From an uncultured Candidatus Saccharibacteria bacterium (GTDB lineage Bacteria; Patescibacteriota; Saccharimonadia; Saccharimonadales; JALRHH01): 64,000 bases of DNA. This document shows positions 29,439-39,230 of the stretch, one piece after another. The position numbers were made by a program, and so were the translations under genes. Under the pieces are notes generated by a model. The model had not been told where the DNA came from, did no database searches, and saw only the letters and a list, made by a program, of their open reading frames with translations. Every line of letters begins with the position of its first letter. The first letter of the stretch is position 1. Location: NCBI GenBank assembly GCA_964590315.1, contig CAZPVS010000002.1:2693-66692 (forward strand). Reading direction: 5' to 3'.

Positions 29439-29689
29439 GTCTATAAGTATATGCGTTACAGCTAAAATGTTGAAATGTTTTACTTCAGCACTTTAGTTGT
29501 ACCAGGTTTTTCTCAATCTTACTCTTTCGAGCATGAGAGTACGGACCTGGTGGCCGTGATGGCGAGAAACGCGTTAAGCATTCCTCAAGCCAAACATCCC
29601 TAGGGATCGTGCAGTGGTCCAGGGTTAAGGGTCTCTATCTCGGATGGCTTCCGAGAGAAACACCAGAACCCTAGTCCCACGCATGCACG

Positions 29690-31210
29690 TTAGAAAACGC
29701 GGACTCCTTTCGATTGGAGGAAGCGGATAGGTTCGAGCGAACCTTTACCCCCTGCTCCGCTTCCTTGAACACACAAGCTGATGTCGGTACACACCGTAAA
29801 GTGCAGGTGAGCACCCGTGGAGTAGCCGGTGGAACCGACGCTCCCAAGGGGCTTGCCAGCACTGACAGTGCTACCCTTGCTGATGCCATCAGCAAACGCG
29901 CTCATGTGAGCGTACAGCGTTGCAACGTTACCGTGATCGATGATCACGTAGTTGCCCCAGGCACTGCTGTACTCTGCTCGCTCGATTCTGCCACCGGCTG
30001 CGGCATATATCGGGGTACCAGCAGAGGTGCTCATGTCGGTGCCGTTGTGAAAGCCAGGTGCTCCCGTTACTGGATGGAAACGGAAGCCATAGCTGTCGCT
30101 GAGTCGGTAGCTGAAGTTTTTGAGGGGGGCTTGCCAGGCACCCGTGTACTCTCCGCCACCTGCTTGACTGATGCGTAGGCCGCCCATGAAACCCTGGTTG
30201 TAGTACATGGACTGCACGAGCACATCAGACTTACTGTTCGCCGCATTCAGGAGCTGGTCGTTGCCGAGGTACATCCCGACGTGGTAGATCCCGCTCTGAG
30301 TGCCATCGCTGGACCAGAAGACAAGATCACCGCGCTGGAGCTCCTCCCGGCTGACGTGACTGGTGGTGATACCAGCCTCCCGGTCCCCCGTGTATCCCCA
30401 CTGCTCACGAGAGGTTCGTGGCAACGTGAGACCCGCCTTATCGAACGCCCAGAGCAGGAGTCCCGAGCAGTCGAAACCACCCGGCTCAGTGCCTCCCCAG
30501 ACATAAGGCGTGCCGACGCGTGACTTGGCGAACTCAATGGCTCGTTCCACGATGTCCGACGAACCCTCGCTGCTCACGCAACTCATGTCCGCGGTGATCG
30601 TCTGGGAGGGGCCGCCTGTGTTGGTGAAGTTCAGGCGTCGGGCAATGGCTGCCGCCTCGTCCAGATGAGGGTCATACGCCTCCGGGTGGCCAGAACGCTG
30701 TACTGCCTGCGCCACGTCTCCGTAACCCCGTGTCTGCCAACCTGGTACGGTCAGCATAACGTCGAGGAACTTATTCGTGGCGTAGGTTACGTCCTGCACC
30801 TGTGCGTCCGTACCCCACCCTTGGCTTGGCCGTTGCTGCAACCAGCCCTTGCTATCCCGGTCACCGTAGTCCAGATTTCGAAGTGTCGACTCCTGGATGC
30901 CCGTGATGAGCAAGATGACCAGAACGCGGTACAAGGGTGTGTCCCCGAAATCACCACGGCGGGCATGCACGACTGCGGCAGCCTGACGGACGACTTTCAT
31001 CTGATCCGCCTGGATAACCGCGTCTTTGACTGTTAGGACGCCGGAGCCGACTGAGACGCTCTCCGGGTCGGAGGACACCAGAAGACTGTCGTCAGTCTGG
31101 TCTCCGCACAGCACTTCTGGGGGCGGCGTACTGAACATCATGAGGCCCATGACGAGTGCGAATGGCACGATCAGCACGAGCGACATGATTCCTACTACGG
31201 AACGTCTCAC
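29690..31210 (-). CDS. Secreted multidomain cell-wall hydrolase: unassigned N-domain + NlpC/P60 + M23 peptidase
   Basis: 506 aa with an N-terminal TM/signal. NlpC/P60: GTPYVWGGTEPGGFDCSGLLLWAF...IYHVGMYLG. M23: FHNGTDMSTSAGTPIYAAAGG...GNYVIIDHG...STGYSTGAHLHFTV. Confidence 0.8.
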   Translation of the reverse strand: MRRSVVGIMSLVLIVPFALVMGLMMFSTPPPEVLCGDQTDDSLLVSSDPESVSVGSGVLTVKDAVIQADQMKVVRQAAAVVHARRGDFGDTPLYRVLVILLITGIQESTLRNLDYGDRDSKGWLQQRPSQGWGTDAQVQDVTYATNKFLDVMLTVPGWQTRGYGDVAQAVQRSGHPEAYDPHLDEAAAIARRLNFTNTGGPSQTITADMSCVSSEGSSDIVERAIEFAKSRVGTPYVWGGTEPGGFDCSGLLLWAFDKAGLTLPRTSREQWGYTGDREAGITTSHVSREELQRGDLVFWSSDGTQSGIYHVGMYLGNDQLLNAANSKSDVLVQSMYYNQGFMGGLRISQAGGGEYTGAWQAPLKNFSYRLSDSYGFRFHPVTGAPGFHNGTDMSTSAGTPIYAAAGGRIERAEYSSAWGNYVIIDHGNVATLYAHMSAFADGISKGSTVSAGKPLGSVGSTGYSTGAHLHFTVCTDISLCVQGSGAGGKGSLEPIRFLQSKGVRVF

Positions 31211-31225
31211 GAGAAATCACCTCCT

Positions 31226-31789
31226 TCAGGGTCTCGTGACCTCGTATACGAACCAGTTACCAGCTTCCCGGACCCACACCATCTCGTAGACGGAGCGGTA
31301 AGCTGCCTCACTGGATCCGTCAGGGTAGGACTTGGTCAGCGTGAGGGTTATGGAGCCCTCGGCAGTTTCTGGATCGATTAGTTCCCCCTCGAACCCGTCT
31401 GCTACCTCGGCGCTCCAACTCGCTTCCTCTTGTATGACCTCTGTATCCAGCTCGGGGTCGAACCCAAACTGGCCGGTCTGCAGAAAGTGGTCCGTAGCGA
31501 ACCGGGCTACCTCTGCCATCGCTTCTTCAGCGCTCTCCGCGGTGTCCCGCGAGAAGTACGCTTCAGAGAACGCTTCAGCCCGAAGCTCAAGAGTGTTCTT
31601 GGACTTGGACAGCTCCTCAGGATCCCTCTCCGCACGCGCGGGACTGTTGCTAGCTCCCGCGCGTGCGGTCTCAGAGGGTGAGGCCGGGTCGTCCGAAGGA
31701 CTGCTCTCGGGCCAGAACCACAGGACGACAGCCGTCACGACGAGGAACGCCGTGATCAACGTCCATAGTCGCTTAGGCCACCGCCTCAT
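31226..31789 (-). CDS. Membrane-anchored acidic hypothetical protein of the T4SS cluster
   Basis: 187 aa. N-terminal TM (LWTLITAFLVVTAVVLWFW). Overlaps the upstream ATPase stop by 17 nt. Confidence 0.6.
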   Translation of the reverse strand: MRRWPKRLWTLITAFLVVTAVVLWFWPESSPSDDPASPSETARAGASNSPARAERDPEELSKSKNTLELRAEAFSEAYFSRDTAESAEEAMAEVARFATDHFLQTGQFGFDPELDTEVIQEEASWSAEVADGFEGELIDPETAEGSITLTLTKSYPDGSSEAAYRSVYEMVWVREAGNWFVYEVTRP

Positions 31790-38201: not shown

Positions 38202-38249
38202 TTTTTGCCGCCTCACTGACCATAATTTTGATCAACAAAGCGGCAAAAA
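38202..38249. repeat. Perfect 10-bp inverted repeat in the AT-rich island intergenic hub
   Basis: TTTTTGCCGC (38202-38211) and GCGGCAAAAA (38240-38249), 28 nt apart. Nearby 8-bp hairpin at 38287-38308. Imperfect direct repeats ATCACCCTATCAG and ATCACTGTATCAG. Confidence 0.7.
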
Positions 38250-38526
38250 CTCCACATCGCACACCGGAATAATACAAAGAACTACGGAGCCGGATTTTCG
38301 TCCGGTTCAATTGCTCATATGTATCACCCTATCAGCAAAAAAATCGGACAACAATACGCACGGTTACACCGCTCAGCTACATCACTGTATCAGTAATTTG
38401 TATTATTTTCAACAATCGGGGATTTTATAGTTTATTTCATTGTATAAATATCTTTTTCAAGATATAAATAGATTATCTCGGCACCCCGCTCGAGATCGCA
38501 CACCCCTACTACCCAGCGAGGTCCCC

Positions 38527-39141
38527 ATGGACACTACCATAGAACAGCCGCCCGTGTCGGGCACCCCGCCCGAGATCGAGCTTGGGCGCACGCCGCAGGA
38601 CAAGGTCGTCCTGTGGTGGAGATGGTTCCTCATCGTGACGGTCTGTGCCGTCCTGGTCTGGGTCATCATGCGTGGGTACGAAGTCCCCCGACTTGTCGAG
38701 GGTCGTCGTCGGACCCGCACGGTTTATGAGACGAAGCATCTGCCCACGCTGCTGCTTGCCGTCCCCCTGGTCATCGGAGTTCTCGGCGTGTGGTTCGAAT
38801 ACCTGCGCTGGAAGAGCGAGGAGTTCGTCGTGACCACCTTCCGGGTCGGCAAGATCAGGCAGTACCCTGCTATCCTCTTCTGGATGACGGATACCTTCGA
38901 CTCTGTCGAGCTTTCGAAGATCGACTATCAAGGTGTCCGTCGTGGTCCGCTCTACAAGTTCATTGGCTGGCTGGGCAAGGCTTTTGGTCGTCCGGACCTG
39001 AAGCAGACCGGCACCCTGAAGCTGGACACCCCGGCCAAGGAAGATGTGGCGCTGAACGCGATGAAGTGGATGCCACGCGTCTACGAGTTCGAGGAGCTCA
39101 TCGTTCAAGCCAAGCGTGACCTCAAGCTTCGGCGAAGCTGA
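38527..39141 (+). CDS. Membrane protein with bacterial PH-like (YdbS/YdbT-type) domain, divergent from the T4SS operon
   Basis: Start set at MDTTIEQ (GAGG 7 nt upstream); the track ORF begins at an upstream TTG. Two TMs, then VVTTFRVGKIRQYPAILFWMTDTFDSVELSKIDYQ. Domain call is tentative. Confidence 0.45.
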   Translation: MDTTIEQPPVSGTPPEIELGRTPQDKVVLWWRWFLIVTVCAVLVWVIMRGYEVPRLVEGRRRTRTVYETKHLPTLLLAVPLVIGVLGVWFEYLRWKSEEFVVTTFRVGKIRQYPAILFWMTDTFDSVELSKIDYQGVRRGPLYKFIGWLGKAFGRPDLKQTGTLKLDTPAKEDVALNAMKWMPRVYEFEELIVQAKRDLKLRRS

Positions 39142-39230
39142 TCCGCAAGGGGTGTGTGCACGGCCGGGGGCGGTATTGTATGGCATTCATTGCCACTACC
39201 GCCCCCGCCCTCACCAACATAACGAAATCG

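Follow-up and report, generated by a model that had tools for sequence, protein, structure and literature searches.

A presumptive type IV secretion system-like cassette of distinct base composition in a Candidatus Saccharibacteria genome

In a contig from an uncultured Candidatus Saccharibacteria bacterium (GenBank assembly GCA_964590315.1, contig CAZPVS010000002.1, positions 2,693 to 66,692), the 64,000-nucleotide stretch analysed here, referred to below as the window, contains a block of about 9.7 kb whose base composition departs sharply from its surroundings and which houses eight genes, several of them resembling genes of type IV secretion systems (T4SSs). The initial annotation of this DNA had taken the block for an actinobacterial-type T4SS module that was probably acquired from the host phylum. 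The question raised by the locus is what kind of system it encodes, and where that system came from. The answer favoured here, with reasonable though far from complete confidence, is that the block is an intact eight-gene cassette for a T4SS-like envelope machine, akin to the actinobacterial SCO6880/TraC and Cmd-like systems, and that it would be a long-established accessory system of Saccharibacteria which has been exchanged among them.

The eight genes and their actinobacterial counterparts

All eight open reading frames (ORFs) of the block are intact, and their arrangement, seven co-directional genes on the minus strand and one divergent gene on the plus strand, is as originally described. 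Lettered by position, they form a cassette in which H is divergent from G-F-E-D-(structured element)-C-B-A.

C (31773..33296, minus strand) encodes a soluble protein of 507 amino acids (aa) whose predicted fold, motifs and profile-profile comparison point to a VirB4-type ATPase, in agreement with the initial annotation, which had recognised the motif GVRESGKSSF. This motif contains the Walker A sequence GVRESGKS; the Walker B motif is a variant of the form hhhh-EE, reading SEE where most family members read DEE, and one subfamily has EE[IV]Q in common. Residues K73 and E340 (the catalytic glutamate) are invariant in 61 sequences. An AlphaFold2 model obtained with the alignment of these 61 sequences has a pLDDT (predicted local distance difference test score) of 89.6, the single sequence giving only 40, and the best PDB folds for this model are those of the Thermoanaerobacter VirB4 ATPase domain (4ag5/4ag6, E = 3e-10, TM-score (target) 0.68-0.69), followed by HerA and TrwB. 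C itself finds no match in Pfam or NCBIfam at E <= 0.01, and within its family four of the 61 members touch Pfam AAA_10, the best of them at 5e-4. Comparison of the C sequence, or of the D and B profiles, with the PDB gave nothing useful.

With about 500 aa and no transmembrane (TM) helix, C lacks, in the same polypeptide, the N-terminal membrane-associated part of VirB4. This part appears to be the separate protein D, as in the SCO6880/TraC pairs of actinobacteria. D (33517..35085, minus strand; 522 aa) is SCO6880-family-like by hhalign and has an N-terminal membrane anchor (TM helix at residues 29-47); its gene lies directly upstream of the ATPase gene, as does that for SCO6880 in actinobacterial loci. 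D does not match the NCBIfam model NF042935 (SCO6880), to which one of five homologues aligns at E = 0.7, and some SCO6880 homologues bear the annotation 'PrgI family'. Upstream of D, E (35111..36349, minus strand) encodes a polytopic membrane protein of 412 aa, with five to six TM helices and a low-complexity C-terminal tail, in the VirB6 position. It had been described as VirB6/TrbL-like; it is polytopic and, by hhalign, homologous to an actinobacterial protein in the VirB6 position, and none of six family members matches a TrbL/VirB6 model of Pfam.

A tblastn search of 72,556 plasmids with C gave one plasmid match, to the Citricoccus 'TraC' (25% identity, E = 2e-6). The order of genes in Citricoccus is small protein, polytopic protein, SCO6880-family protein, ATPase and coupling protein, and the same layout is found on four actinobacterial plasmids, from Citricoccus (NZ_CP133844), Arthrobacter (NZ_CP015735), Streptomyces (NZ_CP108583) and Leifsonia (NZ_CP043642); SCO6880 homologues occur on 51 plasmids, all of them from Actinomycetota. 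Pairwise BLASTP against the Citricoccus neighbours was unconvincing (E = 0.013 for D, not significant for protein E), and profiles were needed. By hhalign, the C family aligns with the TraC-like ATPase with a probability of 99.9% (E = 4.5e-34, 391 columns), the D family with SCO6880 with a probability of 97.7% (E = 2.5e-12, 459 columns), and the E family with the polytopic protein encoded upstream of SCO6880 with a probability of 91.8% (E = 7.5e-7, 205 columns). These comparisons argue that the cassette and actinobacterial conjugative T4SSs share a remote ancestry, with D, C and E both homologous and colinear; and because the three homologues stand in the same order, the original label of an actinobacterial-type T4SS module is supported.

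Like the cassette, the actinobacterial plasmid loci comprise a small membrane protein, a polytopic protein, an SCO6880-family protein of about 500-550 aa and a soluble ATPase of about 510-550 aa, with a wall hydrolase (CHAP, SLT or M23) close by. In those loci, which are carried on plasmids, a VirD4-type coupling protein follows right after the ATPase, whereas the cassette has there B and a three-domain hydrolase. Over and above these, the cassette carries a gene of the ParA/MinD-like type, a membrane protein encoded divergently, and a structured element in the D-C spacer. Identity between the two is at most 25%, and their small proteins are not detectably related: the F family aligns with the actinobacterial small protein over 38 columns at a non-significant E = 0.061.

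F (36417..36737, minus strand) is the small protein with two TM helices and a strong Shine-Dalgarno (SD) sequence that the initial annotation had picked out. It has 106 aa, and its SD sequence, AGGAGGTG, lies 4 nt upstream of the ATG. It is a candidate VirB2/TrbC-pilin-like protein. Two cysteines, C31 and the C-terminal C106, are invariant in all six copies compared, one lying ahead of the first helix and the other being the last or near-last residue, and this suggests either a disulphide or a site of processing or cyclisation, as in some pilins. One protein of a mixed scan set matches Pfam TrbC/VirB2 (PF04956) at 3.8e-4 and is presumed to be a homologue of F.

B (31226..31789, minus strand) encodes a single-pass membrane protein of 187 aa, conserved in six copies, with a TM helix at residues 8-26, a linker rich in Pro and Ser, and a C-terminal domain some 110 aa long; B occupies the position expected for a VirB8-type scaffold, and may, putatively, be one. 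G (36751..38115, minus strand) encodes a 454-aa ParA/MinD-like protein, assigned by alignment and PDB profile, with an N-terminal extension of about 120 aa. Its PDB profile matches are mostly to MinD, ParA, Soj, PF-32 and MipZ (nine of 13), though they are weak (E = 0.007-0.08 for the best six), and it has no match in Pfam. Its P-loop, at residues ~135-141, reads KSCTKS, while three homologues conform to KGG(A/S)(S/G)K(S/T), namely KGGASKS, KGGASKT and KGGSGKT. The original description of G as ParA-like accords with the deviant Walker A motif of the homologues, from which the window copy itself departs. Between G and H lies an AT-rich divergent control region (38116..38526, GC 0.43) with inverted repeats and, on the minus strand, two promoter-like sites. 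H (38527..39141, plus strand) encodes a membrane protein of 204 aa with two TM helices; its frame is open from a TTG at 38440, the ATG at 38527 being the likelier start.

A (29690..31210, minus strand), the last gene of the operon, encodes a wall hydrolase of 506 aa, identified by Pfam, PDB profile and TM prediction, with an N-terminal membrane anchor consisting of one TM helix at aa 5-23. This is followed by a muramidase domain (~aa 95-185), an NlpC/P60 domain (aa 233-336) and an M23 domain (aa 387-473). The latter two had been recognised initially, and they match Pfam NLPC_P60 at 1.5e-26 and Peptidase_M23 at 1.1e-26; the other families for which a Pfam search had been proposed gave no match, neither a VirB4-type model in C nor TrbL in E. 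The muramidase domain is an addition, its profile matching the PDB muramidases 8b2h (E = 8e-15) and 8b2e (E = 1.6e-13). Since this match stands beside NlpC/P60 and M23, A would unite three wall-cutting activities. Peptidoglycan-cleaving domains thus sit within a T4SS-type operon, as is expected of the VirB1 class. Gram-positive hydrolases of this class, such as PrgK of pCF10 and TraG of pIP501, are membrane-anchored, multi-domain proteins with glycan-cleaving and peptidase domains, encoded in T4SS operons. A resembles these in being a membrane-anchored multi-domain hydrolase of such an operon, and differs from them in that its glycan-cleaving domain is of the muramidase 8b2e/8b2h type and not of the SLT family, and in that the domain content varies among copies.

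Other copies of the cassette and a conserved element in the D-C spacer

An exhaustive phmmer search of 1.84 billion representatives for relatives of C yielded 127 clusters, all of about 490-510 aa, with identities from 39% (best) to about 22%. Their amino acid composition (GARP/FYMINK) is that of moderate-GC genomes, one cluster being clearly high-GC and a few intermediate. Word-indexed homologue searches, with either the single sequence or the 61-sequence profile, recovered only C itself. When GTDB genomes were queried with an alignment of two C sequences (that of the window and P0002) no related locus was found, while a motif-sharing subset of the C family, used as query, gave two genomes and one metagenome contig.

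The closest relatives of the cassette proteins, at 25-41% identity, belong to the same cassette at eight other loci (L006, L007, L010, L011, L015, L016, L017 and L019), five of which are sampled relatives and three came from pattern scans. L010 is from Patescibacteria bacterium UBA6017 and L011 from an uncultured Candidatus Saccharibacteria bacterium; the others are a contig that shares the left flank of the window (L007) and five metagenome contigs. Gene order and gene lengths in the window match those of the eight other copies. The layout is H/G-F-E-D-C-B-hydrolase in L007, and E-D-C-B-M23 hydrolase, followed by host genes, in L006. H is 30% identical to the divergent gene of L007 and 27% identical to that of L010, and a divergent gene lies at the same position, by position only, in L017. 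The flanks of the copies consist of housekeeping genes (tRNA synthetase, BipA, P-type ATPase, polyprenyl synthetase, sortase, RND), and neither a relaxase nor a coupling protein nor an integrase was found in any copy or in the flanks seen.

The window and L007 have in common a left neighbourhood made up of the 177-aa protein x177, a response regulator (RR), a histidine kinase (HK), FtsX and an ABC protein. Identities between the two backbones are 55% for the 177/182-aa protein, 82% for RR, 56% for HK, 50% for a 245/199-aa protein, 60% for FtsX and 78% for ABC. The eight cassette proteins, the ATPase included, are uniformly 26-36% identical (about 33%). The right flank differs between the window and L007, and the chromosomal site of the cassette is different again in L006, L010 and L011.

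The hydrolase was found to vary among the copies. In the four compared, the muramidase domain is retained and the remaining domains are swapped: NlpC/P60 and M23 in the window (29690-31210), M23 only in L006 (4773-6029) and L010 (12033-13151), and Exo_endo_phos with M23 in L007 (12043-14343). In L015 an ORF of 1088 aa (4221-7487) lies at the hydrolase position, and is equated with it by position only. This variation suggests a modular retargeting of the wall hydrolase.

In the D-C spacer a non-coding gap of about 185-245 nt is kept in all copies, the other cassette genes abutting or overlapping, and it is better conserved than the flanking proteins. Alignments, folding and a covariance model define within it a conserved structured non-coding element of about 145 nt (33348..33493, minus strand in the window), made up of two long hairpins and a third short one. 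It begins with an SD-like GGAGGUGCG, which is able to pair with either of two downstream ACCUU/ACACUU segments, and this dual pairing hints at alternative structures. Eight copies were folded and gave the same architecture, the z-score of each lying in the range -6.5 to -9.7. With scores of 82-130 bits, the covariance model detects the element once, and once only, in each of eight of the nine cassettes, L019 being missed; the copies outside the window are at L007 9791-9939, L006 2529-2665, L010 9797-9935, L011 9804-9942, L015 1866-2019, L016 4499-4642 and L017 5781-5923. The model detects nothing in the rest of the window or in the loci of actinobacteria, and no Rfam family matches the element. 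In the stems, 11 of 26 pairs are changed on both sides (compensatory), 84.6% of cells are paired against 36-47% with the partners slid, and none of 500 shuffles reaches the observed value for four of five measures, statistics which are to be read with the caveat that the alignment had been fitted to the model. The possibility of a small ORF within the spacer was also considered, and rejected because neither a start nor a frame is conserved across copies. The element may act as a leader or attenuator, as a site of processing, or at the level of the DNA. It is a candidate new cis-regulatory RNA; we know of few such RNAs described in the Saccharibacteria phylum.

Composition and origin of the block

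Computed in 1-kb windows, GC is 0.47-0.51 at 20-29.5 kb to the left of the block, 0.58-0.64 at 29.5-38 kb, 0.53-0.56 at 37.5-39.5 kb, and 0.44-0.46 at 39.5-46 kb to its right. It jumps at 29.53 kb and drops at 39.2 kb, both edges being sharp, and overall the block has a GC of 0.60 against 0.48 in its surroundings. The composition switch first placed at about 29.53 and 39.21 kb is confirmed by this profile and by the GC of third codon positions (GC3): the eight genes of the block have values of 0.69-0.91, and 17 flanking genes have values of 0.39-0.54. The shift lies almost wholly at these positions, GC1 and GC2 being nearly unmoved, and both C-ending (0.81 vs 0.41) and G-ending (0.83 vs 0.42) synonymous codons are about doubled. 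Translational selection for high GC3 was considered and judged unlikely, given that the two kinds of codon rise equally.

The edges of the block coincide with gene ends, lying between the hydrolase stop (29690) and the DUF2177 start (29438) on the left and beyond the H stop (39141) on the right. The left edge (29530..29689, GC 0.56) is non-coding and downstream of the hydrolase gene, and just to its left is the AT-rich, host-type promoter region of DUF2177. At the right edge (39162..39249) a hairpin rich in GC (39162-39210) is followed by one that resembles a bidirectional terminator (39230-39249). The search for flanking direct repeats revealed only chance-level 15-17-mers at the block edges, and no tRNA gene lies beside the block, those in the window being at 14.4 and 21.3 kb only. 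The DUF2177 membrane-protein gene (29040-29438, minus strand) has host composition and lies between the cassette and the conserved genes for the 177-aa protein, RR and HK; it is missing from the same junction in L007, and this amounts to an indel exactly at the cassette edge.

A raised GC3 is not confined to this copy. In all five genomes with flanks the cassette exceeds its neighbours, with GC3 of about 0.78 against 0.46 in the window, 0.51 against 0.28 in L006, 0.68 against 0.57 in L007, 0.72 against 0.62 in L010, and 0.74 against 0.62 in L011. Measured as dinucleotide relative-abundance distance (x1000), cassettes stand 115-137 away from their own flanks and 39-86 away from the cassettes of other genomes; host segments differ from one another by 24-81. 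In L007 the genes adjacent to the cassette (14650-17141, encoding the 182-aa protein, RR and HK) have a GC3 of 0.62-0.65 against 0.52-0.57 further on, and their window orthologues are host-like, at 0.47-0.51; the composition edge is therefore placed differently in the two genomes.

Since the copies are only 25-40% identical in protein, DNA left over from a single, ancient transfer should have undergone amelioration long since, and a regional mutational or conversion bias is disfavoured because the intergenic parts should then be affected too. The most likely explanation is that the distinct composition persists through continuing exchange or replacement of cassettes among Saccharibacteria, from a GC-richer pool; the window copy would then be a relatively recent arrival from a GC-richer Saccharibacterium, not from an actinobacterium. 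Exchange is favoured because the edges are sharp, because the syntenic copy in L007 is deeply and uniformly diverged, and because the chromosomal site varies. The dinucleotide distances and the raised GC3 in all five genomes count on the same side.

The alternative that survives best, although it is rather unlikely, is that the cassette was inherited vertically, having been present before the split from the L007 lineage, and that it is fast-evolving and subject to a locus-specific GC3 bias, through a local process such as GC-biased gene conversion by frequent allelic recombination, or selection at synonymous sites. Fast evolution is often seen in machinery at the host interface, the x177, RR, HK, FtsX and ABC neighbourhood is present in both window and L007, and mobility genes are absent from all copies. 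The GC3 excess in all five genomes would also be expected, and cassette GC3 partly follows that of the host, being 0.51 in the GC-poor host of L006. Of the operon genes, G and F rank first in GC3 in three copies (window, L007 and L010); in L011 the top value belongs to F, and C exceeds G. Enrichment, moreover, is restricted to coding third positions, the intergenic GC of the block being only 0.43-0.56. Against this, G- and C-ending codons both about double, which looks compositional rather than tRNA-driven, and the GC3 excess of 0.32 in the window is large for recombination-linked effects, those usually reported in bacteria being much smaller. The eight proteins, including the normally conserved ATPase, are about 33% identical to those of L007 where the neighbours reach 50-82%; the cassette lies elsewhere in L006, L010 and L011; and the right flank is not common to L007, while DUF2177 intervenes on the left.

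Several points weigh against reading the block as a T4SS-like cassette exchanged among Saccharibacteria. As regards the gene products, A is the only one of the eight that matches a Pfam or NCBIfam model. B has no match in Pfam, NCBIfam or PDB profile comparisons and H no family match, the assignments of both being weak or absent; E is linked only to an unannotated actinobacterial protein, and not to VirB6/TrbL itself; F is a weak candidate for a pilin-like protein; and the window copy of G has a degenerate P-loop, such that ATP binding may be impaired or altered because both glycines are replaced. As regards the history of the block, only two of the other copies (L010 and L011) carry a taxon label, and no relative of the cassette was found in viral contigs, phage genomes or non-actinobacterial plasmids. 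No close donor is known, the best match to C being 39% identical, and composition is therefore all that speaks for a recent arrival. No vehicle for exchange is seen, there being neither integrase nor repeats at the cassette. The modest GC of the non-coding parts of the block counts in the same direction, and the left flank common to the window and L007 fits vertical descent with fast evolution as well.

The reading that goes back to the initial annotation is that of an island which the epibiont received recently from its actinobacterial host, either a decaying integrative and conjugative element (ICE) or a freshly domesticated piece of one. This is now very improbable. The GC of 0.60 against 0.48 with sharp edges would accord with it, as would a dinucleotide distance to actinobacterial T4SS loci (112-113) smaller than that to the block's own flanks (133-135), the colinear homology of D, C and E with actinobacterial plasmid T4SS genes, and the restriction of the SCO6880-homologue plasmids, all 51, to Actinomycetota. 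The best actinobacterial match to C, however, is only 25% identical (E = 2e-6) and was found on one of 72,556 plasmids, whereas another 126 representative clusters are more similar to C or about equally so (39% to about 22% identity), nearly all with the amino acid composition of moderate-GC genomes. Wherever the context of a relative is available, it is that of the same cassette of eight genes, while actinobacterial loci carry a type IV coupling protein (T4CP) after the ATPase; the cassette has a GC3 of 0.78 and C/(C+T) of 0.81 against 0.98 in actinobacterial genes; and the actinobacterial loci have no counterpart of the structured element between D and C. The ORFs are intact, hence there is no decay, and of the two fates originally offered, a domesticated apparatus is the better fit to the intact ORFs and the eight matching copies. 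As a recent event, acquisition from the host phylum appears largely refuted by these comparisons: the nearest relatives are the same cassette in Saccharibacteria/Patescibacteria, and because these relatives sit in genomes belonging to the candidate phyla radiation (CPR), with GC3 also raised, the outcome is essentially that which the initial annotation had named as contrary to its own proposal.

The initial annotation had also asked that the junctions be checked for a chimera. Three Logan contigs, which are assemblies of single runs, match the window at 100% identity: L002 (26292-31424) contains the left junction, L003 (39031-40075), from a different run to that of L002, contains the right junction, and L001 corresponds to 31660-35061. 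Because single-run contigs cross both edges at full identity, the block is joined to the Saccharibacteria backbone and an assembly chimera is ruled against. The least probable account of all, to which next to no weight is given, is thus a mis-assembled or mis-binned contig fusing Saccharibacteria DNA to that of a GC-richer organism: composition is abrupt at both block ends, the source is apparently metagenome-derived and protein C was found in only one NCBI contig and in Logan run assemblies, but both junctions are crossed, the right one in another run, and other contigs carry the cassette among Saccharibacteria-type housekeeping genes, the L007 copy adjoining the same RR-HK pair.

The closest homologues of the flanking HK are 52-59% identical, and the named ones are, all but one, from Candidatus Saccharibacteria, Saccharimonadales or Patescibacteria; because of these names the backbone is taken as that of a Saccharibacterium, apparently one with no close sequenced siblings. 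With relatives at this distance, two of which show no conservation upstream of the RR-HK pair, the HK led to no empty site, and no att site could be defined. The flanking genes are ordinary (GltX, a two-component pair, MacB-type ABC, sortase, PEGA, DUF3048, P-type ATPase, DinB). Elsewhere in the window there is a milder rise in GC at 46500-48400 (0.51-0.54, the surroundings being at 0.44-0.47), over a Zn_peptidase gene (46531-47364) and an ORF of 326 aa that has no annotation (47396-48376). The stretch at 58000-64000, at the right end of the window, is GC-poor (0.37-0.43) and its ORFs have no family matches, the composition of the backbone being patchy. In a 227-aa protein encoded at 39857-40540 (minus strand), only the last ~70 residues match nucleoside-diphosphate kinase (3.3e-13), the 140 residues at the N-terminus having no assignment.

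Proposed function and place among known systems

From the homologies of its parts, it is possible to propose how the machine would work. Membrane-anchored D would dock the soluble VirB4-type ATPase C, and the two together would energise a channel formed by polytopic E. F would be a small pilin-like subunit, B a bitopic scaffold, and G, as a ParA/MinD-type protein, would position or assemble the complex. A would cleave peptidoglycan in three ways, at the glycan strand and at two peptide bonds, and could thereby let the machine span the wall, either of its own cell or of the bacterium on which it sits.

The cassette contains none of the hallmarks of a conjugative T4SS or ICE: no relaxase, no clustered coupling protein, and no integrase, att repeats or insertion in a tRNA gene. 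Because coupling protein, relaxase and integrase are lacking, its likeliest role would be in contact-dependent transport or cell-cell attachment, and not in self-transfer. A scan of 39 window ORFs likewise revealed no relaxase, and no integrase was found. The earlier statement that relaxase, coupling protein, integrase and repeats are missing holds inside the block; for the window as a whole it needs correcting as to the coupling protein, since there is, 21 kb from the cassette, a stand-alone T4CP/HerA-like ATPase of 852 aa (5480-8038, plus strand) with host-type GC3 (0.53). This protein matches a TraD subfamily (2.5e-11), TrwB_AAD_bind and DUF87. It could serve the cassette, the core T4SS, or neither, and it fits the published pattern of orphan coupling-protein homologues in Saccharibacteria.

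A core T4SS has been described across Saccharibacteria and is essential for epibiotic growth in Southlakia (PMC10633639, PMC12102498, PMC7427843). This core system includes virB4, PrgI and VirB6 together with a TrsD-like protein and arrays of pilins, without relaxase and with coupling-protein homologues elsewhere, and its virB4 neighbourhood is commonly near dnaA in most CPR phyla (PMC10633639, PMC12102498); the TM7x cluster contains an array of small secreted proteins (PMC7427843). This core system (TM7x; Southlakia SEML1_0006-0019; MPF_FATA-related) is like the cassette in being monoderm-type, in having neither relaxase nor adjacent coupling protein, and in pairing VirB4 with a separate protein (TrsD) that resembles the VirB4 N-terminus. 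VirB6 and VirB2-like pilins belong to it, and its virB4 is followed by genes of the peptidase and lysozyme kinds. It differs in its far larger proteins (about 613-1114 aa for those of Southlakia SEML1_0006-0019, with an array of pilin subunits), in its arrays of pilins or small secreted proteins, and in having no ParA-like gene, whereas the cassette has a ParA-like gene and no pilin array. Its VirB4 is detected by standard hidden Markov models (HMMs), while C of the cassette matches no Pfam or NCBIfam model. Because its protein sizes are unlike those of SEML1_0006-0019, it has a ParA-like gene but no pilin array, and its location is another, we read the cassette as a second system, set apart from the origin-proximal core T4SS by gene size, content and location. 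A second T4SS-like lineage of Saccharibacteria is not reported in the papers searched, and earlier annotation of the cassette seems to be lacking.

A precedent for domestication of an SCO6880-type T4SS is provided by cmdABCDEF of Streptomyces coelicolor (SCO4126-4131), compared here by description only. This cluster is chromosomal and apparently non-conjugative, with a paralogous cluster at SCO6871-6884; CmdB is a VirB4-like ATP/GTP-binding protein, CmdC and CmdD resemble SCO6880 and SCO6881, and the whole is a chromosomal relative of SCO6878/6880/6881 (PMC2782261). The Cmd phenotype, affecting sporulation and chromosome segregation, has no counterpart in a non-sporulating epibiont.

Taken together, these observations permit a wider picture, possible but distinctly tentative, in which Saccharibacteria possess a second T4SS lineage that derives from SCO6880/Cmd systems of the phylum they parasitise. 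Free of mobility genes and repeatedly swapped, which would explain the GC3 and dinucleotide signature, the cassette would be controlled by a new RNA leader and tuned to host walls by its variable three-way hydrolase.

Few systems have been shown to be essential to the epibiotic life of Saccharibacteria, and T4SS genes are among them. If the reading given here is true, the cassette, with seven of its eight proteins unannotated and missed by standard HMMs, would go uncounted in current surveys. Cassettes which are 25-40% identical in protein, and yet share a signature unlike that of every host chromosome examined, also present an evolutionary puzzle. Their kinship with SCO6880/Cmd systems would tie the machinery of epibiont and host phylum together at a deep level, and not as a recent gift, and the cassette would be a new candidate for host contact or transport.

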